Shown piece by piece: positions 28,625-44,795 of a DNA stretch of 64,000 nucleotides. Position numbers and translations under genes: made by a program. The stretch lies in the NCBI RefSeq assembly GCF_965202595.1, contig NZ_OZ241836.1:215095-279094 (forward strand), read 5' to 3'. The DNA is from Candidatus Poriferisocius sp. GTDB taxonomy: Bacteria > Actinomycetota > Acidimicrobiia > Acidimicrobiales > Bin134. Every line of letters begins with the position of its first letter. The stretch's first letter is position 1. The notes under the pieces were generated by a model. It worked only from the letters and a program-made list of their open reading frames with translations, made no database searches and was not told the origin of the DNA.

Positions 28625-29497
28625 TTGCCCGTGGGTATTGCACTCTCCATCGCCATACCGATCATCGTGGTGGCCGCCGCGATCATGCTGGTGGCCGCGG
28701 CCCGCCGCCGGGAGACCATGGCCGCCGAGGGGCACCTGAACCGGGAGACCCGCCGCCGGGATCGCGGCCGGGTGGCCGTCGACGGCGAACCCGTTGCCGG
28801 CCCCACCGGCCGGGAGGTGGAGAGGGCCGCGGTGGTGGCTCGCCAATCCGCCGGCACCGAGGTGGTGGAGGCGGTGGATGCGTCGGTCGAGGAGTGGACC
28901 CCGCCCCATCCCGAGATGGTCGGGGTGAGCCGCCGCCAGTTCCTGAATCGCAGCACGGTGGCCATGATGGGTTTTGGCCTCAGTGGTTTCGGTGCCGCTT
29001 GCATAGCCTTCTTGTGGCCGCCGTTCGTCACCGGTTTCGGTGCCGACGTGAACGTGGGCCTGGTGGACGATGTGAAGTCCCGCATCAAGGATGAGAACGG
29101 TTTCCTTTATATTCCCGAGGGTCGCGCCTGGGTGACGGAGTACCCGCAAGCCGCCTTGCAGAAGGCGCAGAACGTGTACAGCGCTCCGGAGTTGGCGGGG
29201 ATCGAGTCCGGGCTGATTGCCTTGTTCCAGAAGTGCCCCCATCTGGGGTGCCGGGTGCCGTCGTGTTTGACCTCGCAGTGGTTCGAGTGCCCGTGCCACG
29301 GATCCCGCTACAACCAGGTGGGCGAGAAGCGGGGTGGGCCCGCTCCCCGGGGCATGGACAGGTTCGCCATGTCGGTCAACTCCAAGGGGGAGTTCATCAT
29401 CCGCACCGGCACCATTATCCAGGGGCCCCCCATCGGGGTGAACACCACCGGCCAGGAGCCCGAGGGGCCGAGCTGTCTTGGGGGAGCATCGCACTGA
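28625..29497 (+). CDS. Rieske [2Fe-2S] subunit
   Basis: CPHLGC and CPCHGS boxes. Confidence 0.85.
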   Translation: MPVGIALSIAIPIIVVAAAIMLVAAARRRETMAAEGHLNRETRRRDRGRVAVDGEPVAGPTGREVERAAVVARQSAGTEVVEAVDASVEEWTPPHPEMVGVSRRQFLNRSTVAMMGFGLSGFGAACIAFLWPPFVTGFGADVNVGLVDDVKSRIKDENGFLYIPEGRAWVTEYPQAALQKAQNVYSAPELAGIESGLIALFQKCPHLGCRVPSCLTSQWFECPCHGSRYNQVGEKRGGPAPRGMDRFAMSVNSKGEFIIRTGTIIQGPPIGVNTTGQEPEGPSCLGGASH

Positions 29498-29573
29498 TGT
29501 TCGAGTATCCCCGCCGATTCGATGCTCCAACCTGGTGGGGGCCGAGCTGTCTTGGGGGAGCATCGCACTGATG
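29466..29573 (+). repeat. 74-bp duplication of the Rieske-stop / cytochrome-c-start junction, encoding one 24-codon bridging mini-ORF
   Basis: ggccgagctgtcttgggggagcatcgcactgatg at 29466 and 29540. Mini-ORF 29497-29571 (MFEYPRRFDAPTWWGPSCLGGASH*). TGATG overlaps at both ends. Confidence 0.9.
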
Positions 29574-30917
29574 CCCCTGCTTGCCGCTTCTACCCAGCGC
29601 AATCTGGGCATGGCCATCGCGGTTGTCGCCATTGTTGGCTTTGCCATCTACCTCATCTACAACGTGTTGTGGGCGGGTCGGGAGGAGAGGGGATCGGAGC
29701 TGGAGCTGGCCCCCAACCGCAAGCCCTACATGAACGATCAGGAGCTGGAGACCAGAAGGTTGGACCTGGCCCTGGCCGGGGGGCTGGCAACCCTGGTCAT
29801 CATCGGCGTGGCCCTGCCCCTGTACTGGTTGGGGGAGCCGGGCCGCCAGCAGGGCTACGTGGAGGACTCCCGGAGGCAGTTCACCAGCCGGGGGGGCGAG
29901 ATGTTCGAGGAGCAATGCTCGGACTGTCACGGCGGCGGCGGTTTGGGTGGCTCCACCGCCACGACGATCGTGGACGACAGCGGCAATTTCGTGACCCCGG
30001 TCCAGTGGGAGGTTCCCGCGCTCACCACCACGCTGTACCGCTTCTCCGAGGACGAGGTGCGTCACATCCTCAATTACGGCCGCCCCCCCACCCCCATGCA
30101 AGCGTGGGGGGCACCCGGCGGAGGTCCTTTGACCACCCAGCAGGTTGACGAGCTCATCCAGTACATTCAGAGCATCCAGCTCTCCCCCGAGGAGGTGGAG
30201 CAAGAAGTGCTGGACGGCCTCATCCTTCAAGTTCGCGGGGACGTGTTGGAGGCCAACCCCGAGCTGGGGGCGCGATTGGCCGAGGCCAACGATGCGGTGA
30301 GGCAGGCGGGGGCCGACGAGGCCGCGGCCGAGGCTGCCGCCCGCAACCTGGCCGCGGTCGAGCAGGAGATTCGCGAGACCAGCGAGCAGTACATACGTGA
30401 TCTGCCCGGGGTGGATGGGGCATCGGCGGCCCGGGGGGAGCTGCTGTTCAACAACGGGGTTTACGGCTGCGCCCGCTGCCACACCCCGAGGGACTCGTGG
30501 CGGTTCACCGTACCCGAGGAAGCGCCCGGGGAGGATCCGAAGACCTACGAACAGGGTTCCCCCGAGGAGGCCGAGGTCGTCGCCCGGTTGGGGTCGCTGA
30601 TCCCCGAGCGGGAACCCGGCGGGGGTGCGTTCGGCCCCAACCTCACCAACGGGTCCACCAAGCGCCAGTTCGACACCGCCGGTGACCATGCCGGCTTCGT
30701 CGCCGAGGGTTCCCAGGAGGGGAAGGCTTTCGGCAACTTCGGCCAGGGCGACGGTGGGGGTCAGATGCCGGCCTTTGGTGTTTGCGTGGGTGACCGGGAC
30801 TCGGGTGAGCGCAGCCCGATCCACGGTTTCTGCACCTTGACCGACGGCAGTCCCCGACCCGGGATGTTGACCCCCGAACAAATCGACGACATCGTGGCTT
30901 ACGAGCGGGGGTTGTAG
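29571..30917 (+). CDS. Membrane-anchored diheme cytochrome c
   Basis: Two heme motifs (CSDCH, CARCH) and an N-terminal TM helix. The start is set at ATG 29571 (MPLLAAST...), within track ORF 29478..30917. Confidence 0.8.
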   Translation: MPLLAASTQRNLGMAIAVVAIVGFAIYLIYNVLWAGREERGSELELAPNRKPYMNDQELETRRLDLALAGGLATLVIIGVALPLYWLGEPGRQQGYVEDSRRQFTSRGGEMFEEQCSDCHGGGGLGGSTATTIVDDSGNFVTPVQWEVPALTTTLYRFSEDEVRHILNYGRPPTPMQAWGAPGGGPLTTQQVDELIQYIQSIQLSPEEVEQEVLDGLILQVRGDVLEANPELGARLAEANDAVRQAGADEAAAEAAARNLAAVEQEIRETSEQYIRDLPGVDGASAARGELLFNNGVYGCARCHTPRDSWRFTVPEEAPGEDPKTYEQGSPEEAEVVARLGSLIPEREPGGGAFGPNLTNGSTKRQFDTAGDHAGFVAEGSQEGKAFGNFGQGDGGGQMPAFGVCVGDRDSGERSPIHGFCTLTDGSPRPGMLTPEQIDDIVAYERGL

Positions 30918-30994
30918 GCAAGCATGGGAGAATTGTTCAGCTTCATTCCGGCCCCGTACCTGGCTTACGAGTGGGGGTTGTAGGCAAGCATGGG
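30896..30994 (+). repeat. 66-bp duplication of the cytochrome-c-stop / next-gene-start junction with a 19-codon mini-ORF
   Basis: ggcttacgag.gggggttgtaggcaagcatggg at 30896 and 30962. Mini-ORF 30924-30983 (MGELFSFIPAPYLAYEWGL*). The 6-nt stop-to-ATG spacing is preserved in both copies. Confidence 0.85.
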
Positions 30995-37166: not shown

Positions 37167-39790
37167 ACCGGCCGGAAACCGTGGTCAACATCACCGTCAA
37201 CAACCGGTCGGTGCAAGCCACCCCCGGAGAGTGGGTGATTGCCGCTGCCGAACGGGCCGGGGTGTACATCCCCCACTTTTGCTACCACCCCCGCATGAAC
37301 TCGGTGGGCATGTGCCGCATGTGCATCGTGGACATCGACACCGGGCGCGGCCCCGCCCTGCAACCCTCCTGCATGGTGCCGGTCAGCGAGGGAATGGTGG
37401 TGGACACCACCTCCGAGCAGACCCGCAAGGCTCAGGAGGGGGTGCTGGAGTTCCTGCTGTTGAACCACCCGCTGGACTGCCCGGTGTGCGACAAGGGCGG
37501 CGAGTGCCCCCTCCAGGACCAAACCATGTCCCACGGCCCCGGCGAGAGCCGCTTGGTGGAGGAGAAGCGCCATTTCGAGAAGCCCATCCCGGTGAACGAT
37601 CTGGTTTATCTGGACCGGGAGCGCTGCATCCTCTGCGATCGCTGCACCCGGTTTGCCGATGAGGTGGCTGGGGACCCGCTCATCACGTTCCAGGATCGGG
37701 GGGATCGGACTCAGGTCAACACCTTCCCCAATCTGCCCTTCTCCTCGTACTTCAGCGGCAACACCGTGCAGATCTGCCCGGTGGGGGCCCTCACCGCTCG
37801 ACCCTACCGGTTCAAGGCCCGCCCCTGGGACCTCACCGAGGTGGAGTCCACCTTCCCCAACCCCATGGGTGATCGGGTGGTGGTGCAGGCCTCTCGCGAC
37901 CAGGTGCTGCGCTACCAGGGAGTGGACAGCGACGCGGTCAACTGGGGGTGGCTCACCGACAAGGATCGGTTCGCATTCGAAGCTCTTGATCGGGGGCCAC
38001 GGCTGACGGTGCCGCTGGTTCGGGGCTCCTCGATGAGTGGCTCCGACCCCGGCGGCCAGGAGCTGGTGGAGTCCTCCTGGCATCAAGCCCTCAACCGGGC
38101 CGCGGAGGCCATCCGGGCTGCGGTGGCCGACCGGGGTCCGGGGTCGGTGGCGATACTGGGTGGGGCCCGCTCGACCAACGAGGACCAGTACGCCTGGGCT
38201 CGCCTGGCCAAGGGGGTTATCGGCACCGACCATGTTGACGCTCAGCTCGACGACGGCCTGCCCGCCGATGTCGTGCTCGGCCTGCCTCGGGCCACCATCA
38301 ATCGGGCCTGCACCCCCGGCGGCACCGTGATCTTGATGGCACCCGATCCCAAGGAGGAACAAGGCACCCTCTACCTGCGGCTCCGCCACGCCGTGACCAA
38401 CGACGGCGTGCAGCTCATCGAGCTGACCCCCCGAGCCACCGGTTTGAGCCATCTCGCCGCCCACCGGCTGCACCACCGCCCCGGTGAGGTTGCCGCGGTG
38501 GCGGCGGCCCTGGTGGGCGGCGATATCGATGTCGGACCCGCCGGTGAGATCGGCGGGGTTCCCGGTCCGGTGCTGGCCGCTGCGGCGGCCGGGCTGGTGG
38601 CCCGAGCCGATCAACCCATAACCGTGATCCTGGGTCGCCCTTCGCTGGCCGAGTCGGCCGCCCCTACGGTGGAGGCCGCCGCCGAACTGTCCAAGCTGGC
38701 CCGGCTGCTCGCCGCGGGCGGGCGACCCGGCATGAGTTTCCTGCCCGTACTGCACCGGGGCAACGTGTTCGGCGCGCTCGACATGGGTCTGGCTCCCGGT
38801 CTGCTGCCGGGCCGGGTGTCCCGGGCCGATGGTGGCTCGGCGGTGGCCGAGTTTTGGGGTTCGTTACCGGCGGACCCGGGCGCTGGGGCCGGCATCGCCA
38901 CCGGCGCTGCCACCGGCGCTGGGGCTGGTGCTGTCACCGGCGCTGCCACCGGCGCTGCCACCGGCGCTGGGGCCGGCGGGATCCTGGAAGCGGCCGCAGG
39001 GGGACGAATCGAGGTGCTGATCCTTTTGGGGGCCGATCCTTTGGGCGACGTTCCCAACGCCAAGCTGGCCGAGACCGCTCTGGCCGGGGTGGGCACCATC
39101 ATTGCCTCCGACTTGTTCCTGAACCCCTCCGCGGCCCGGGCCGACATCGTTTTCCCGGTCACGGCGTTCGGTGAGCATCGGGGTACCCACACCAACCTGG
39201 AGGGTCGGATCACCCGGCAGCGCCAGATTGTCACCCCTCCGGGTACGGCCCGGACCAACTGGTCCATCGCCACCGATCTGGCTCGGTTGCTGGGCACCGA
39301 TTTCGGGTTTGCCGACCCCGAGGCGGTGTGGTCCGAGATCACCCGGGTGGCCCCGTCGCACCGGGACCTGACCCTGGAGGCCGTGGAAGCCGAAACCGAT
39401 GGCGTGGTGGTTGCCGGTAGCTCCATCGTGTTCACCCCGCCCGGCGAACCGGTGCCGGTACCCCCGGCCGATGCCTACGGCCTGCGGTTGGTGTCGTCGC
39501 GCCGCATGTACGACCGGGGCACGCTGCTTCAGCACTCCCCCTCCCTGGCCGGTTTGGCTCCCACGGCGGTGCTGGCCGTGAACCCCTCCGACTTTCAGGG
39601 TGTCGGGGTGGATCCCGGTACCGAGGTTCAGGTCGTCTCCCCGGTCGGTGAGATGACCGTGCCGCTGGTGGTCGACCCCGGTGTGCCCCGAGGGACCGCA
39701 GCTTTTGGCTACAACCACCCCGACCGCGATGTACGAGAACTCATCGACCCGGCCGCGGTGGTTACCGATGTGAGGATTCAGACCCGATGA
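37163..39790 (+). CDS. nuoG: NADH-quinone oxidoreductase subunit G
   Basis: N-terminal 2Fe-2S/4Fe-4S Cys clusters (CYHPRMNSVGMCRMC, HPLDCPVCDKGGECPLQD, CILCDRC) and a molybdopterin-like domain. A GA/T-rich low-complexity insertion lies around 38870-38990. Confidence 0.95.
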   Translation: MNRPETVVNITVNNRSVQATPGEWVIAAAERAGVYIPHFCYHPRMNSVGMCRMCIVDIDTGRGPALQPSCMVPVSEGMVVDTTSEQTRKAQEGVLEFLLLNHPLDCPVCDKGGECPLQDQTMSHGPGESRLVEEKRHFEKPIPVNDLVYLDRERCILCDRCTRFADEVAGDPLITFQDRGDRTQVNTFPNLPFSSYFSGNTVQICPVGALTARPYRFKARPWDLTEVESTFPNPMGDRVVVQASRDQVLRYQGVDSDAVNWGWLTDKDRFAFEALDRGPRLTVPLVRGSSMSGSDPGGQELVESSWHQALNRAAEAIRAAVADRGPGSVAILGGARSTNEDQYAWARLAKGVIGTDHVDAQLDDGLPADVVLGLPRATINRACTPGGTVILMAPDPKEEQGTLYLRLRHAVTNDGVQLIELTPRATGLSHLAAHRLHHRPGEVAAVAAALVGGDIDVGPAGEIGGVPGPVLAAAAAGLVARADQPITVILGRPSLAESAAPTVEAAAELSKLARLLAAGGRPGMSFLPVLHRGNVFGALDMGLAPGLLPGRVSRADGGSAVAEFWGSLPADPGAGAGIATGAATGAGAGAVTGAATGAATGAGAGGILEAAAGGRIEVLILLGADPLGDVPNAKLAETALAGVGTIIASDLFLNPSAARADIVFPVTAFGEHRGTHTNLEGRITRQRQIVTPPGTARTNWSIATDLARLLGTDFGFADPEAVWSEITRVAPSHRDLTLEAVEAETDGVVVAGSSIVFTPPGEPVPVPPADAYGLRLVSSRRMYDRGTLLQHSPSLAGLAPTAVLAVNPSDFQGVGVDPGTEVQVVSPVGEMTVPLVVDPGVPRGTAAFGYNHPDRDVRELIDPAAVVTDVRIQTR

Positions 39791-39840
39791 CGGCTGACCC
39801 GGCTGCGGTGGTTACCGATGTGAGGATCCGGACCCGATGA
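39746..39840 (+). repeat. 50-bp duplication of the nuoG/nuoH junction with a 17-codon bridging mini-ORF
   Basis: gacccggc.gcggtggttaccgatgtgaggat.c.gacccgatga at 39746 and 39796. Mini-ORF 39787-39840 (MTADPAAVVTDVRIRTR*). ATGA overlaps at both ends. Confidence 0.9.
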
Positions 39841-41063
39841 ACGTCGCCCCGGCGCTTTTGGGTCCGACCGTGTTCGGCCTCGACCCGCTCTACATCGGGG
39901 GGGTGGGCCTGGCCGAGGTTCTCATCACCCTGCTCAAGGTGGGGGTGGCTTTTGCTCTTCTGCTGATGGCGGTCATGCTGATGATCTGGTTCGAACGCAA
40001 GTTGATCGGCGACATGCAGAACCGTATCGGGCCTGCGCTGGCCGGGCCGTTCGGCATCTTCCAGACCCTGGCCGACGGGATCAAGCTGTTCTTCAAGGAG
40101 GACCTGATCCCCGACCGCTCCGACCGGTTGGTGTTCAAGCTGGCCCCCTACCTGTCGCTGGTGCCTGCCTTTTTGGTGTTCGCCGTGATCCCCGTGGGCG
40201 GCGATTTCAGCGGTGGCAACGGGCGGGTCAGCCTGTTCGGTCACGAGACCTTCCTCCAGGTGTCCGACCCGCCGGTGGGCATCCTGCTGGTGCTGGCCAT
40301 GTCGTCGGTGGCCGTTTACGGGGTGATGCTGGCCGGGTGGTCGTCGGGCTCCAAGTATCCCCTGCTGGCGTCGGTGCGGGCCTCGGCCCAGATGGTTTCC
40401 TACGAGGCCGCACTGGGTTTGTCGCTGGCCGCGGTGCTGCTGAAATCGGGCAGCCTGTCCACCCACCTGATCGTTTCCGAGCAGTCGGTGTGGAACTGGA
40501 ACCTGTGGGTTACATGGGTGGTGCCCATGGTCGTCTTCTTGATCGCTGCCACCGCCGAACTGAACCGGCCCCCCTTCGACCTGGTGGAGGCCGAGCAGGA
40601 GCTGGTCGGCGGCTTCCACACCGAGTACAGCTCCATCCGGTTCGCCCTGTTCTACCTGGCCGAGTTCATGAACACCATCACGATGTCGGCCATCGTGGTG
40701 ACCCTGTTCCTGGGCGGGCCCAACGGTCCCGACTTCACCTCGGTGGGCTGGCTGTCGGGGTTGCTGTGGTTCTTGGGCAAGCTGCTGATCCTGCTGTTCA
40801 CCTTTGTGTGGTTGCGGGCCACCCTGCCCCGCTTCCGCTACGACCAGCTCATGGACCTGGGTTGGAAATTGCTCATCCCCCTGTCGCTGGGGTGGCTGCT
40901 GGTGCTGGCCTCCTACGACGTGGCCGGGGATCGGGGCTGGAACCGCTTCGCCACCGTGCTGGCGGTGATGGCGGTGATGGCCGCTCTGGCCGGGTTGTTG
41001 AGCCTGGCCCTGCGAAATGCCCGCCGCCACCGGGAGTTGGATCCCCAAGGTGGTTTTGCCTGA
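39837..41063 (+). CDS. nuoH: NADH-quinone oxidoreductase subunit H
   Basis: WFERKLIGDMQNRIGP and EAEQELVGGFHTEYS motifs. Confidence 0.95.
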   Translation: MNVAPALLGPTVFGLDPLYIGGVGLAEVLITLLKVGVAFALLLMAVMLMIWFERKLIGDMQNRIGPALAGPFGIFQTLADGIKLFFKEDLIPDRSDRLVFKLAPYLSLVPAFLVFAVIPVGGDFSGGNGRVSLFGHETFLQVSDPPVGILLVLAMSSVAVYGVMLAGWSSGSKYPLLASVRASAQMVSYEAALGLSLAAVLLKSGSLSTHLIVSEQSVWNWNLWVTWVVPMVVFLIAATAELNRPPFDLVEAEQELVGGFHTEYSSIRFALFYLAEFMNTITMSAIVVTLFLGGPNGPDFTSVGWLSGLLWFLGKLLILLFTFVWLRATLPRFRYDQLMDLGWKLLIPLSLGWLLVLASYDVAGDRGWNRFATVLAVMAVMAALAGLLSLALRNARRHRELDPQGGFA

Positions 41064-41130
41064 TGGGATACCTTGAGTTCACCCGATGGTGGCTGGATCC
41101 CCAAGGTGGTTTTGCCTGATGGGATACCTT
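41039..41130 (+). repeat. 56-bp duplication of the nuoH/nuoI junction with an 18-codon bridging mini-ORF
   Basis: ggatccccaaggtggttttgcctgatgggatacctt at 41039 and 41095. Mini-ORF 41063-41119 (MGYLEFTRWWLDPQGGFA*). TGATG overlaps at both ends. Confidence 0.9.
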
Positions 41131-41775
41131 CAGGGCTTTGCCGTCACCCTTCGCAAGTTGTTCAAGGGCACCGAGACCGGTCGGGTGGTCACCAGCCAGT
41201 ACCCCGACGAGAAGCGTCCCAAACCCGAGCGCTTCCACGGCCGCCACGTGCTGAACCGCTACGAGGACGGCATGGAGAAGTGCATCGGGTGCGAGCTGTG
41301 CGCCGGGGTCTGCCCGGCCCGGTGCATTTATGTTCGGGGGGCCGACAACCAGCCCGATGATCCGGTTTCGCCCGGCGAGCGATACGGCTATGTCTACGAG
41401 ATCAACTACCTGCGGTGCATCCACTGCGACCTGTGCGTGGAGGCCTGCCCCACCGAGGCCATAACCGAGTCGAAACTGTTCGAGTTCTCGTTCACCGACC
41501 GGGCCGATGCCATCTACACCAAGGACGAGCTGGTGGTGGATGACGATGGCCGCCCCCAGCAGCTTCCCTGGGAACACTGGAATCCCGGTGACGATCAGCA
41601 CACCTCGGCCTGGGTCCGGGCCACATCCCCCTCGGGGCGGGCCGACTACGAGGGTCGGGTGGCCTGGTCGGGCGAGCTGGGCTACGGCATCCGCGCCCCC
41701 GAGCGGGGTCAGTCGGCCGGCGACGAGTCCCCCGCCGATTATGACCAGGAAGATCTTGGCGGGGGTCACCACTGA
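41119..41775 (+). CDS. nuoI: NADH-quinone oxidoreductase subunit I
   Basis: CIGCELCAGVCP and CIHCDLCVEACP motifs. The start is at the second junction copy (MGYLQGFAVTLRK). Confidence 0.95.
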   Translation: MGYLQGFAVTLRKLFKGTETGRVVTSQYPDEKRPKPERFHGRHVLNRYEDGMEKCIGCELCAGVCPARCIYVRGADNQPDDPVSPGERYGYVYEINYLRCIHCDLCVEACPTEAITESKLFEFSFTDRADAIYTKDELVVDDDGRPQQLPWEHWNPGDDQHTSAWVRATSPSGRADYEGRVAWSGELGYGIRAPERGQSAGDESPADYDQEDLGGGHH

Positions 41776-41818
41776 TGGAGACAGCGGTTCGCAAAGCCCA
41801 TGGCGGGGGTCACCACTG

Positions 41819-41826
<8 letters not shown>
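41758..41826 (+). repeat. 44-bp duplication of the nuoI/nuoJ junction with a 14-codon bridging mini-ORF
   Basis: ggcgggggtcaccactgatggagac at 41758 and 41802. Mini-ORF 41775-41819 (METAVRKAHGGGHH*). Confidence 0.9.
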
Positions 41827-42356
<530 letters not shown>

Positions 42357-42370
<14 letters not shown>

Positions 42371-42461
42371 TGGTCACCGCATTCTGGTATGTCCGTTGCC
42401 GGCCACCGCGGGGGCTGCGACCGGCCCCCGGTGAAGACTGATGGTCACCGCATCCTGGTAT
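42357..42461 (+). repeat. 71-bp duplication of the nuoJ/nuoK junction with a 23-codon bridging mini-ORF
   Basis: ccggtgaagactgatggtcaccgcat.ctggtat at 42357 and 42428. Mini-ORF 42370-42441 (MVTAFWYVRCRPPRGLRPAPGED*). Confidence 0.9.
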
Positions 42462-42743
42462 CTGGTGCTGGCTGGCGCGCTGTTCACCATCGGGGCGGTG
42501 GGCCTGCTGGTGCGGCGGAACCCGCTGATCATGTTCATGTGCGTGGAGCTGATGCTCAACGCGGTCAACCTCACCTTCATCACCTTCGGGCGGGAGCTGA
42601 ATGACATCGGGGGGCAGGTGTCGGTGTTCTTCGTGCTGGTGGTGGCCGCGGCCGAGGTGGTGGTGGGTCTGGCCATCGTGGTGGCCATCAAGCGCCACCA
42701 ACCCCGGGCCACCGCCGACGACCTTGCGGCCCTGAAGGGTTAG
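42441..42743 (+). CDS. nuoK: NADH-quinone oxidoreductase subunit K
   Basis: 100 aa: LVLAGALFTIGAVGLLVRRNPLIMFMCVELMLNAVNL. Confidence 0.95.
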   Translation: MVTASWYLVLAGALFTIGAVGLLVRRNPLIMFMCVELMLNAVNLTFITFGRELNDIGGQVSVFFVLVVAAAEVVVGLAIVVAIKRHQPRATADDLAALKG

Positions 42744-42843
42744 TGGGTACATGAGCATGCTCGTGGATGCTGAAGGGTTAGTGGGTACATGAGCACCCTC
42801 GTGGATGCTGAAGGGTTAGTGGGTACATGAGCACGCTCGTGGA
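42732..42843 (+). repeat. 38-bp tandem repeat x3 of the nuoK/nuoL junction with two chained 13-codon mini-ORFs
   Basis: ctgaagggttagtgggtacatgagca..ctcgtggat at 42732, 42770 and 42808. Mini-ORFs 42751-42792 (MSMLVDAEGLVGT*) and 42789-42830 (MSTLVDAEGLVGT*), ATGA-chained to the nuoL ATG at 42827. Confidence 0.9.
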
Positions 42844-44722
42844 TCTGGTGTGGCTGATCCCCGCCTTCCCGCTGGCCGGGGTTCTGATCCTCGTGGTTTC
42901 GGGGCGCAGGCTGGGCGAACCCCGGGCCGGCTGGCTGGCCACCGCCATGATGGGCGGATCGTTCGTGACCACGCTGCTGGTGTTCATCGGGCTCCTGGGC
43001 CACGACGGTGAGGAGCGTCAAAAGGTGCTCACCCTGTTCGAGTGGGTACCCGCGGGGCGGCTGGCGGTGGACATCGGCTTTCTGGCCGACCCGCTGGCCA
43101 TCACCATGGCCTTGTTCGTGACCGGGGTCGGAGCTCTCATCCACCTTTACTCCATCGGCTACATGCACGGCGACGAGGGGTTCTCCCGGTTCTTCGTGTA
43201 CCTCAACCTGTTCGCCTTCTCCATGCTCATGCTGGTGCTGGGCGACAACCTCCTGCTCACCTTCCTGGGCTGGGAGGGGGTGGGGGCCTGCTCCTACCTG
43301 CTCATCTCGTTCTGGTTCACCGACGAAACCAACGCCACCGCGGGCAAGAAGGCGTTCGTCACCAACCGGGTGGGCGACTGGGGCTTCTTGGTGGCCATGT
43401 TCCTGGCGTTCTTGACCTTCGGGTCGCTCCAGTACGGCGAGATCTTCTACGACCTGGAGTCCAACGGGGTGGCCGCTGGCACCGCGTCGGCCATCGTGGT
43501 GCTGCTGCTGGTGGGCGCGGCCGGCAAATCAGCCCAGTTCCCGCTGCACATCTGGCTGCCCGATGCCATGGCCGGCCCCACCCCGGTGTCGGCGCTCATT
43601 CACGCCGCCACCATGGTCACCGCCGGGGTTTACCTGCTGATCCGCATGAACCCGATCATTGCCGAGGCCCACGGGTGGGTGCCCGACCTGATCATGTGGT
43701 TGGGTCTGGGGACCGCGCTGATGGCCGCCACCATCGCGGTGGCCCAGAACGACATCAAGAAGGTGCTGGCCTACTCCACGGTCAGCCAGCTCGGGTTCAT
43801 GTTCGTGGCGGTGGGGTCGGGGGCCTACGTGGCCGCCATCTTCCACATGGTAACCCACGCCTTTTTCAAGGCCCTCCTGTTCCTGGGGGCCGGGTCGGTG
43901 ATCCACGCCATGCACGGCGATCAGGATCTTCGCCGCTACGGCGGTCTGGCCCGATTTCTGCCCGTTACCTCGATGACCTTCGTGGCCGGCTGGCTGGCCA
44001 TTGCCGGCGTTCCCCCGTTCTCCGGTTTCTGGTCCAAGGACGAGATCCTGGTTTACGCCTATGGCGAGAACAAGCTGCTGTGGCTGCTGCTGCTGGTGAC
44101 CGCGGTGCTCACCGCCTTCTACATGACCCGGCTGGTGCTCATGACGTTCTTCGGCCCCCGCCGCTGGGCGGGCGAAGCAGCCGATCCCCACGAGTCGCCG
44201 TGGACGATGACCGCTCCCCTGGTGGTTCTGGCCGCCCTGGCCGTGGTGGCCGGGGTGGTGAACCTGCCGTTTGCCTCCAGCACCCACTTCTTGGGGAACT
44301 GGCTGGATCCGGCCTTTTTCGGCAATGCCTCTCACCTGAGCCTCGGCGGGGGCACCAAATGGGTGCTGGCCGCCGTTGCCATCGTGGGCAGCCTTCTGGG
44401 AGTCTCGGCCGGGGCCGCGGTGTACGCCCGGCGCCGGGTGGATCCGGCTCGCCTCGAGCACCCCTTCCTGGCCCGGGCCTGGCGCATCGATGAGCTGGTC
44501 ACCGCCTTCATGGGTGGTCCCGGCCGCCGGGCGTTCGAGCGCACCACCCGGTTTGATGAGCAGGTGGTGGACGGCGCGGTCAACGCCACCGGCGCTTTGA
44601 TCCGCCGGGCCGGAACCAAACTGCGGGTGTCGCAAACCGGCCTGGTGCGCAGTTACGCCCTGGGTATCGCCGCCGGGGCAGTGGCACTTTTGGCCTGGTT
44701 CCTGTCGCGGGCGGGGTTGTGA
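42827..44722 (+). CDS. nuoL: NADH-quinone oxidoreductase subunit L
   Basis: 631 aa, with antiporter-like motifs (WEGVGACSYLLISFW, KSAQFPLHIWLPDAMAGPTPVSALIHAATMVTAG). Confidence 0.95.
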   Translation: MSTLVDLVWLIPAFPLAGVLILVVSGRRLGEPRAGWLATAMMGGSFVTTLLVFIGLLGHDGEERQKVLTLFEWVPAGRLAVDIGFLADPLAITMALFVTGVGALIHLYSIGYMHGDEGFSRFFVYLNLFAFSMLMLVLGDNLLLTFLGWEGVGACSYLLISFWFTDETNATAGKKAFVTNRVGDWGFLVAMFLAFLTFGSLQYGEIFYDLESNGVAAGTASAIVVLLLVGAAGKSAQFPLHIWLPDAMAGPTPVSALIHAATMVTAGVYLLIRMNPIIAEAHGWVPDLIMWLGLGTALMAATIAVAQNDIKKVLAYSTVSQLGFMFVAVGSGAYVAAIFHMVTHAFFKALLFLGAGSVIHAMHGDQDLRRYGGLARFLPVTSMTFVAGWLAIAGVPPFSGFWSKDEILVYAYGENKLLWLLLLVTAVLTAFYMTRLVLMTFFGPRRWAGEAADPHESPWTMTAPLVVLAALAVVAGVVNLPFASSTHFLGNWLDPAFFGNASHLSLGGGTKWVLAAVAIVGSLLGVSAGAAVYARRRVDPARLEHPFLARAWRIDELVTAFMGGPGRRAFERTTRFDEQVVDGAVNATGALIRRAGTKLRVSQTGLVRSYALGIAAGAVALLAWFLSRAGL

Positions 44723-44795
44723 TGTTCCGTAGCCGATCATCTGGCCCATTCCGGCAACTTTTGGCCTGGTTCCTGTCGCGGGCGGGGTTGTGATG
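44686..44795 (+). repeat. 71-bp duplication of the nuoL/nuoM junction with a 23-codon bridging mini-ORF
   Basis: acttttggcctggttcctgtcgcgggcggggttgtgatg at 44686 and 44757. Mini-ORF 44722-44793 (MFRSRSSGPFRQLLAWFLSRAGL*). Confidence 0.9.

Follow-up and report, generated by a model that had tools for sequence, protein, structure and literature searches.

A 71-bp insertion lies exactly at the overlap of the nuoJ stop and the nuoK start in this genome of Candidatus Poriferisocius sp., and it was acquired in the lineage of this species. It consists of 35-37 bp of DNA that is foreign to the locus and of a 34-36-bp duplication of the target. Judging from the sequence, the insertion seems to have survived through its length, which would let ribosomes read a decoy frame that ends on the nuoK start. 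As for its source, we give about an even chance to off-target integration of a prespacer by the cell's own type I-G Cas4/Cas1-Cas2.

Structure of the nuoJ/nuoK junction

A pattern search of the window (the whole stretch of DNA that was analysed, 64,000 nucleotides) found two occurrences of the 34-mer CCGGTGAAGACTGATGGTCACCGCAT[T/C]CTGGTAT, both at the nuoJ/nuoK junction and with one mismatch between them, against 0.00 expected from 100 shuffles. The copies are spaced 71 bp from start to start, and allowing two mismatches extends the duplication to 36 bp. The 3' end of nuoJ reads ...GCCGGTGAAGACTGATGGTCACCGCATTCTGGTAT; after 37 unrelated bases comes CCGGTGAAGACTGATGGTCACCGCATCCTGGTAT, which runs into nuoK (Table 1). 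Since the duplicated target spans the TGATG, copy 1 leaves the end of nuoJ intact and copy 2 leaves the start of nuoK intact. NuoI, NuoJ, NuoK, and NuoL are all confirmed by NCBIfam, and the nuoJ start at 41819 was deduced from the structure of the nuoI/nuoJ junction.

The nuoJ stop codon (TGA, 42368-42370) and the start codon of a bridging mini-ORF (ATG, 42370-42372) have their A in common, as do the stop codon of the mini-ORF (TGA, 42439-42441) and the start codon of nuoK (ATG, 42441-42443). According to the ORF list and its translation, the mini-ORF encodes MVTAFWYVRCRPPRGLRPAPGED* in 23 codons, the middle 13 of which derive from the filler. An earlier note, made from the letters alone, had described a 23-codon frame bridging the two genes, with a start like that of NuoK, an end like that of NuoJ, and a TGATG overlap at each end. 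The frame is indeed present in the sequence and in its translation, the overlaps are seen at 42368-42372 and 42439-42443, and the resemblance to both neighbours is explained by the duplicated junction. The '71-bp unit' of which the same note spoke is misleading, since only 34 bp (36 bp with two mismatches) are repeated; the rest is unrelated DNA, and there is no tandem unit.

Table 1. Features of the nuo operon and its surroundings, in positions of the window.
Feature	Positions	Strand	Description
nuoJ (NADH-quinone oxidoreductase subunit J)	41819..42370	+	NCBIfam NF005165, E 4.4e-50; stop TGA 42368-42370
target copy 1	42357..42390	+	real nuoJ stop and decoy nuoK start (ATG 42370)
filler	42391..42427	+	37 bp, or 35 bp with a 36-bp duplication; GTCCGTTGCCGGCCACCGCGGGGGCTGCGACCGGCCC; unrelated to the locus
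target copy 2	42428..42461	+	decoy nuoJ stop (the mini-ORF stop, TGA 42439-42441) and real nuoK start (ATG 42441)
bridging mini-ORF	42370..42441	+	23 codons; probable by-product of the insertion
nuoK (subunit K)	42441..42743	+	NCBIfam NF004320, E 3.6e-34, above cut-off
nuoG/nuoH junction	39746..39845	+	tandem duplication, period 50 (2 mod 3)
nuoH/nuoI junction	41038..41130	+	37-bp copies and 19-bp filler, period 56 (2 mod 3)
nuoI/nuoJ junction	41757..41826	+	26-bp copies and 18-bp filler, period 44 (2 mod 3)
nuoK/nuoL junction	42732..42845	+	three tandem copies, period 38 (2 mod 3)
nuoL/nuoM junction	44686..44795	+	39-bp copies and 32-bp filler, period 71; same class as the nuoJ/nuoK scar
scar upstream of the nuo operon	29464-29573		36-bp duplication and 38-bp filler, period 74
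scar upstream of the nuo operon	30895-30994		34-bp duplication and 32-bp low-GC filler, period 66

Comparison with relatives

In an alignment with 11 genomes of the same genus, the junction ...GACGACTGATGGTCACCGCCTCCTGGTATCTG... is present once in every relative, the insert of this genome faces a clean gap of 71 bp, and all of the aligned relatives have the ancestral TGATG overlap of nuoJ and nuoK. In a DNA search, both halves of the query map to one overlapping site in each of the other genus genomes that hold the locus (37/37), and the mini-ORF is missing from all of these 37 species. The orthologous nuoH-nuoL segment of about 3.1 kb carries four local duplications in this genome, every one of them at a gene junction; among 29 relatives the same segment is without a local duplication in 28, and none has a repeat at nuoJ/nuoK. 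The exception, G008 (L178), has an unrelated 54-bp tandem in this segment.

The sole difference between the two copies is a T in copy 1, where copy 2 and all of the aligned relatives have C. Therefore, the difference arose in copy 1, the decoy copy. With regard to other alleles of the species, no record has the exact NuoK protein; the joined-flank (empty-site) pattern had no match in metagenome contigs, and the junction pattern had none in genome contigs. Two relatives, G003 (L004) and G007 (L006), have an in-frame 18-bp addition of their own (CCAAGCCCAGGAAGCCSC) in the variable C-terminal tail of NuoJ.

Census of local duplications in the genome

The assembly comprises 3.1 Mb in two contigs with 63% GC, in which TRF reported 1456 tandem arrays. 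A census of short-range direct repeats, from which the CRISPR array was excluded and harmonics were removed, gave 692 copy-filler-copy pairs (scars, such as that at nuoJ/nuoK) and 694 filler-less pairs. Outside the array, the copy-filler-copy periods number 56 at 71 bp, 53 at 72 bp, 23 at 73 bp, 11 at 74 bp, and 5 at 75 bp, and then 0 at both 76 and 77 bp, while a tail of shorter units lies at 60-68 bp (n = 78). The duplicated length of the scars has its mode at 36-37 bp. Duplications of 33-39 bp have either no filler (n = 260) or a filler of 32-40 bp (n = 93), with few between. Altogether 124 scars have a period of 69-76 bp, 62 of them with perfect copies and 44 with one mismatch, and they are spread evenly along the chromosome. 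Two more clean scars, of the same class as those at nuoJ/nuoK and nuoL/nuoM, lie in the window upstream of the nuo operon (Table 1).

The filler-less duplications form a class at periods of 30-39 bp, in which each of the three mod-3 series peaks at 33-36 bp; those of 33-39 bp outnumber the scars about threefold. In the whole-genome TRF results, tandem arrays with a period of 30-40 bp have exactly three copies in 116 cases and two copies in 123, whereas the ratio of three-copy to two-copy arrays is about 0.3 for other periods (15-29 and 41-60 bp). A three-copy array of 36 bp adds 72 bp, which is the same as a copy-filler-copy scar adds.

Phase of the insertions and translational coupling

Translational coupling in operons can rest on overlapping stop and start codons (ATGA, TGATG). 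The nuoJ/nuoK insertion resembles this arrangement in recreating the ancestral TGATG overlap twice; it differs in that, as read from the sequence, it would add one termination-reinitiation step by way of a meaningless 23-codon frame. At a TGATG or ATGA overlap, phase 2 is the only phase in which the frame of the decoy start ends on the real start. An insertion in phase 0 would lengthen the N-terminus of the protein, and one in phase 1 would carry ribosomes over the real start out of frame. The decoy start in copy 1 opens the 23-codon frame, and since 71 is 2 mod 3, this frame ends at the TGATG that holds the real nuoK start. It may be proposed that ribosomes finishing nuoJ would restart at the decoy start, translate its frame, terminate at its stop, and begin again on nuoK, and that selection retained insertions with a phase of 2 mod 3 and purged the others.

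The 124 scars were sorted by the content of the duplicated part into those that hold the stop of one long coding frame together with the start of the following one (stop+start), those in intergenic DNA, and those inside a gene. The stop+start scars are in phase 2 mod 3 in 16 of 18 cases, the intergenic scars are distributed 7:8:8 over phases 0, 1, and 2 mod 3 (8/23 in phase 2), and the gene-internal scars are in phase 0 mod 3 in 11 of 14 cases. The phase of the stop+start scars differs from that of the intergenic ones (Fisher p = 5.6e-4), and a difference is also seen against the CRISPR array, in which units of 71 and 74 bp make up 19% (p = 3e-10). The filler-less duplications have the same phase bias (22/29). 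Within the nuo operon, all six of the duplicated junctions are 2 mod 3, namely G/H 50, H/I 56, I/J 44, J/K 71, K/L 38, and L/M 71 (p = 0.0014). The process that generates the scars thus takes no account of phase, and the survival of the insertion is explained by purifying selection.

The mini-ORF is thus probably a tolerated by-product, and its peptide would be without function. An evolved element, in which the mini-ORF or its RNA tunes the ratio of nuoJ to nuoK or in which the frame encodes a small membrane peptide, might be suggested by the preserved frame, the exact stop-start overlaps, and the run of six consecutive nuo junctions with such frames. Yet the mini-ORF is missing in all 37 other species that hold the locus, its peptide has no match among the NCBIfam families, the RNA of the junction does not fold more stably than shuffles (z = -0.55), an Rfam search of the insertion gave no match, and purifying selection against harmful phases fully accounts for the phase bias. 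We therefore regard such an element as very improbable. An artefact of assembly is scarcely credible, even though no second assembly of the species was found: the filler is unique, hence there is no repeat that could have been collapsed or expanded, a single base distinguishes one copy from the other, and an assembler cannot create about 124 scars with context-dependent phase selection.

Whatever their origin, the scars constitute a natural insertion screen. The phase bias, with 16/18 genome-wide and 6/6 in nuo, can be taken as population-genetic evidence that termination-reinitiation coupling matters for the genes of complex I subunits, or, in a weaker form, that at least the avoidance of frames running over the next start matters.

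Nature and sources of the filler DNA

Compared with its shuffled versions, the nuoJ/nuoK filler has no extra similarity either to the 1.3 kb around it or to 88 kb of the nuo loci of 28 relatives. It has no second match in its own genome, and none in about 3 Mb of relatives' DNA, in viral contigs, or in metagenome contigs. Three further fillers, the one at nuoL/nuoM and two of low GC, have no match in viral contigs. In the genome as a whole, 116 of the 124 fillers are without another match, and some are 25-42% GC in a genome of 63% GC. For eleven fillers the source is a distant site on the chromosome; where these self-derived fillers are cleanest, the match stops exactly at the filler ends, with 34/34 (one mismatch), 28/28, and 25/25 bases aligned. 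The fillers have no sequence in common with each other or with the spacers of the array. On the basis of these sequence matches, they appear to behave like captured DNA. Template switching driven by microhomology was rejected as the origin of the fillers, since the ends of the self-derived fillers have no consistent microhomology.

At one scar (C1:2695211) the filler is 25% GC (TGCTGTAAGAAATGATGAATTGAAATCAAAATTGTT) and clearly foreign DNA, again with no match in viral contigs. A low-GC island at C1:2820000-2855000 (37-50% GC) contains, at C1:2849915-2849951, a perfect 37/37 match to one spacer of the type I-G array; the target of this spacer is therefore an integrated element of the cell itself. 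One of the filler sources lies at the edge of this island, and two others lie about 20 kb before it.

The unrelatedness of the filler also bears on the similarity to mycobacterial interspersed repetitive units (MIRUs). The insertion could have begun as a MIRU-like 71-bp tandem duplication, made by slippage or unequal exchange, in which either the half away from the junction later diverged or gene conversion kept the junction cores alike. Neighbouring junctions do have pure tandem duplications (nuoG/H with period 50, and nuoK/L with period 38 and three copies), and MIRUs are intergenic units of 40-100 bp with ORFs that overlap the flanking genes (PMC3184786). The likeness extends to the position within an operon, cotranscription, and a small ORF overlapping the flanking stop and start (PMC3184786). 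MIRUs, as described by Supply et al. 1997 to the extent that PMC3184786 relates it, form a dispersed family, with about 40-50 copies that are related to each other and have short direct repeats. The scars here, in contrast, are locus-specific, with a local junction duplicated and a unique filler, rather than a dispersed sequence family, and nuoJ/nuoK has one copy-filler-copy unit and no tandem array. Moreover, the copies are identical at 33 of 34 positions while the filler is no nearer to either flank than shuffles, a contrast that ordinary divergence cannot give, and in other scars of the same class the filler reproduces a distant locus exactly. Overall, a duplication of the MIRU kind appears improbable.

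The resident type I-G CRISPR system

Cas1 and Cas2 are each present once in the genome, in an intact type I-G locus with Cas4g/Cas1g (765.7 bits, cut-off 560), Cas2, Cas3 with an extension, Csb2, and Csb1. The only array of the genome adjoins these cas genes and has 75 repeats of 36 bp and 74 spacers; the spacers are 35 (7), 36 (32), 37 (25), 38 (7), or 39 bp (3) long, which gives units of 71-75 bp. The cas locus (C1:2239800-2250000) is 47% GC within the 63% GC genome and thus looks horizontally acquired.

The scars match this array in repeat length, in spacer length, in the modal unit, and in the upper limit of 75 bp. At nuoJ/nuoK, the target duplication is 34 bp (one mismatch) or 36 bp (two mismatches) and the resident repeat is 36 bp, while the filler is 35-37 bp and the spacers of the array are 35-39 bp. 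Off-target integration by Cas4/Cas1-Cas2 would duplicate a target of repeat length (36 bp) and insert a fragment of spacer length (35-39 bp). We know of no enzyme but Cas1-Cas2 that pairs a staggered target duplication of repeat length with an insert of spacer length.

The type I-U/I-G Cas4/1-Cas2 module makes mainly 36-bp spacers, and the published type I-G PAM is TTN (PMC6547450). Off-target integration by Cas1-Cas2 was shown in E. coli overproducing both proteins, with circumstantial cases in the wild, as far as the work of Nivala 2018 is related in PMC7054753, PMC6698737, and bioRxiv 10.1101/148544. In P. furiosus, off-target sites resemble the leader-repeat junction or the repeat (PMC6698737). 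The nuoJ/nuoK scar shares the repeat-spacer-repeat geometry of the neo-CRISPR seeds of Nivala, Shipman and Church 2018, in the form in which these sources present them; it is placed outside the array, and the intact adaptation module of its genome has matching dimensions. The published seeds were rare events in E. coli with type I-E and over-produced Cas1-Cas2, whereas here more than 100 scars are found in a wild type I-G genome. The scars here also differ in being without a repeat-like target motif, a visible PAM, or array growth, and they are only weakly linked to the presence of cas genes among relatives. A coupling-phase filter at operon junctions is not mentioned where PMC7054753, PMC6698737, and bioRxiv 10.1101/148544 cite Nivala 2018.

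Several features of the scars speak against an origin by Cas1-Cas2, among them the lack of a source for the nuoJ/nuoK filler in the DNA compared. The duplicated targets share 13.3 identities with the CRISPR repeat against 13.1 for random 36-mers, and no motif is seen at their boundaries. No scar in the genome has a second repeat-spacer unit; a CRISPR array needs at least three repeats, different spacers, and a leader, whereas the nuoJ/nuoK site has two copies and one filler. A protospacer search with 287 spacers from the arrays of this genome and six relatives found only one protospacer, from which no PAM is derivable. A TTN flank is absent at the three cleanest sources of self-derived fillers and present at two less clean ones, and the only array spacer with a known target is also without TTN. 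Many fillers are 25-34 bp long and therefore shorter than any spacer of the array. The filler-less duplications of 33-39 bp are not explained by spacer integration alone.

These observations can be accommodated by a Cas-independent process with a ruler of about 36 bp, which would duplicate a target of that length either alone or together with a captured short fragment. It would cover the scars, the filler-less duplications that are about three times as many, the excess of three-copy arrays, which equal two-copy arrays only at periods of 30-40 bp (116 vs 123), and the scars in relatives without cas genes. The targets without a repeat-like or leader-like motif, the lack of a PAM and of neo-CRISPR growth, and the existence of fillers of 25-34 bp, for which the array has no counterpart, all point in this direction. 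Against it, Cas1-Cas2 is the sole enzyme known to us with this kind of duplication and insert, and both the mode of the scar period (71-73 bp) and its hard upper limit (75 bp) equal those of the resident array. Under a Cas-independent process, the match to the CRISPR unit would be either a coincidence or a hint of shared ancestry or of a shared host factor. We consider such a process the main rival, less likely than off-target integration but a serious possibility.

If off-target integration by the resident Cas4/Cas1-Cas2 is true, more than 100 such events stand recorded in a natural genome, and CRISPR adaptation would have a real mutagenic cost and be a source of new linkers, tails, and mini-ORFs. 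Such integration has so far been documented mainly for E. coli overproducing Cas1-Cas2.

Scar load across relatives

The scar load was compared between 380 kb of this genome (G000) and 400 kb from each of six relatives (Table 2). The filler-less duplications and the scars of 71-75 bp rise together in G000, about tenfold over the six relatives (54 and 14 per 380 kb vs 0-9 and 0-4), and this parallel rise favours the Cas-independent process. So does the scarcity of scars in relatives with the same type I-G module, which have about ten times fewer than G000: clean scars number 2 per 400 kb in both G043 and G015, against about 16 in G000. In addition, G040, which has neither cas1 nor the type I-G repeat, has one clean, perfect 36+32 scar. 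Overall there are 7 clean scars in 1.6 Mb of relatives with cas1 and 1 in 0.8 Mb of relatives without it, a difference that is not significant (p = 0.2).

Table 2. Filler-less duplications and scars in samples of G000 (380 kb) and six relatives (400 kb each).
Genome	CRISPR-Cas	Filler-less duplications of 30-39 bp	Scars of period 71-75
G000	type I-G	54	14
G043	type I-G	9	3
G015	type I-G	6	4
G018	another type, 37-bp repeat	3	2
G044	type II-like, 66-bp unit	0	2
G040	no cas1	4	0
G001	no cas1	6	0

Ku (PF02735) was found in none of the 40 genomes of the genus; therefore, classical non-homologous end joining (NHEJ) appears to be absent from the genus. For this reason, the filler-less class is unlikely to stem from staggered breaks repaired through NHEJ, and a Cas-independent process in the form of a staggered break, fill-in, and NHEJ is unlikely as well. 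Loss of NucS mismatch repair was rejected as the cause of the high scar load, since NucS is present. The array of G044 (L029/L030), with a 36-bp repeat, 30-bp spacers, and a unit of 66-67 bp, looks type II-like.
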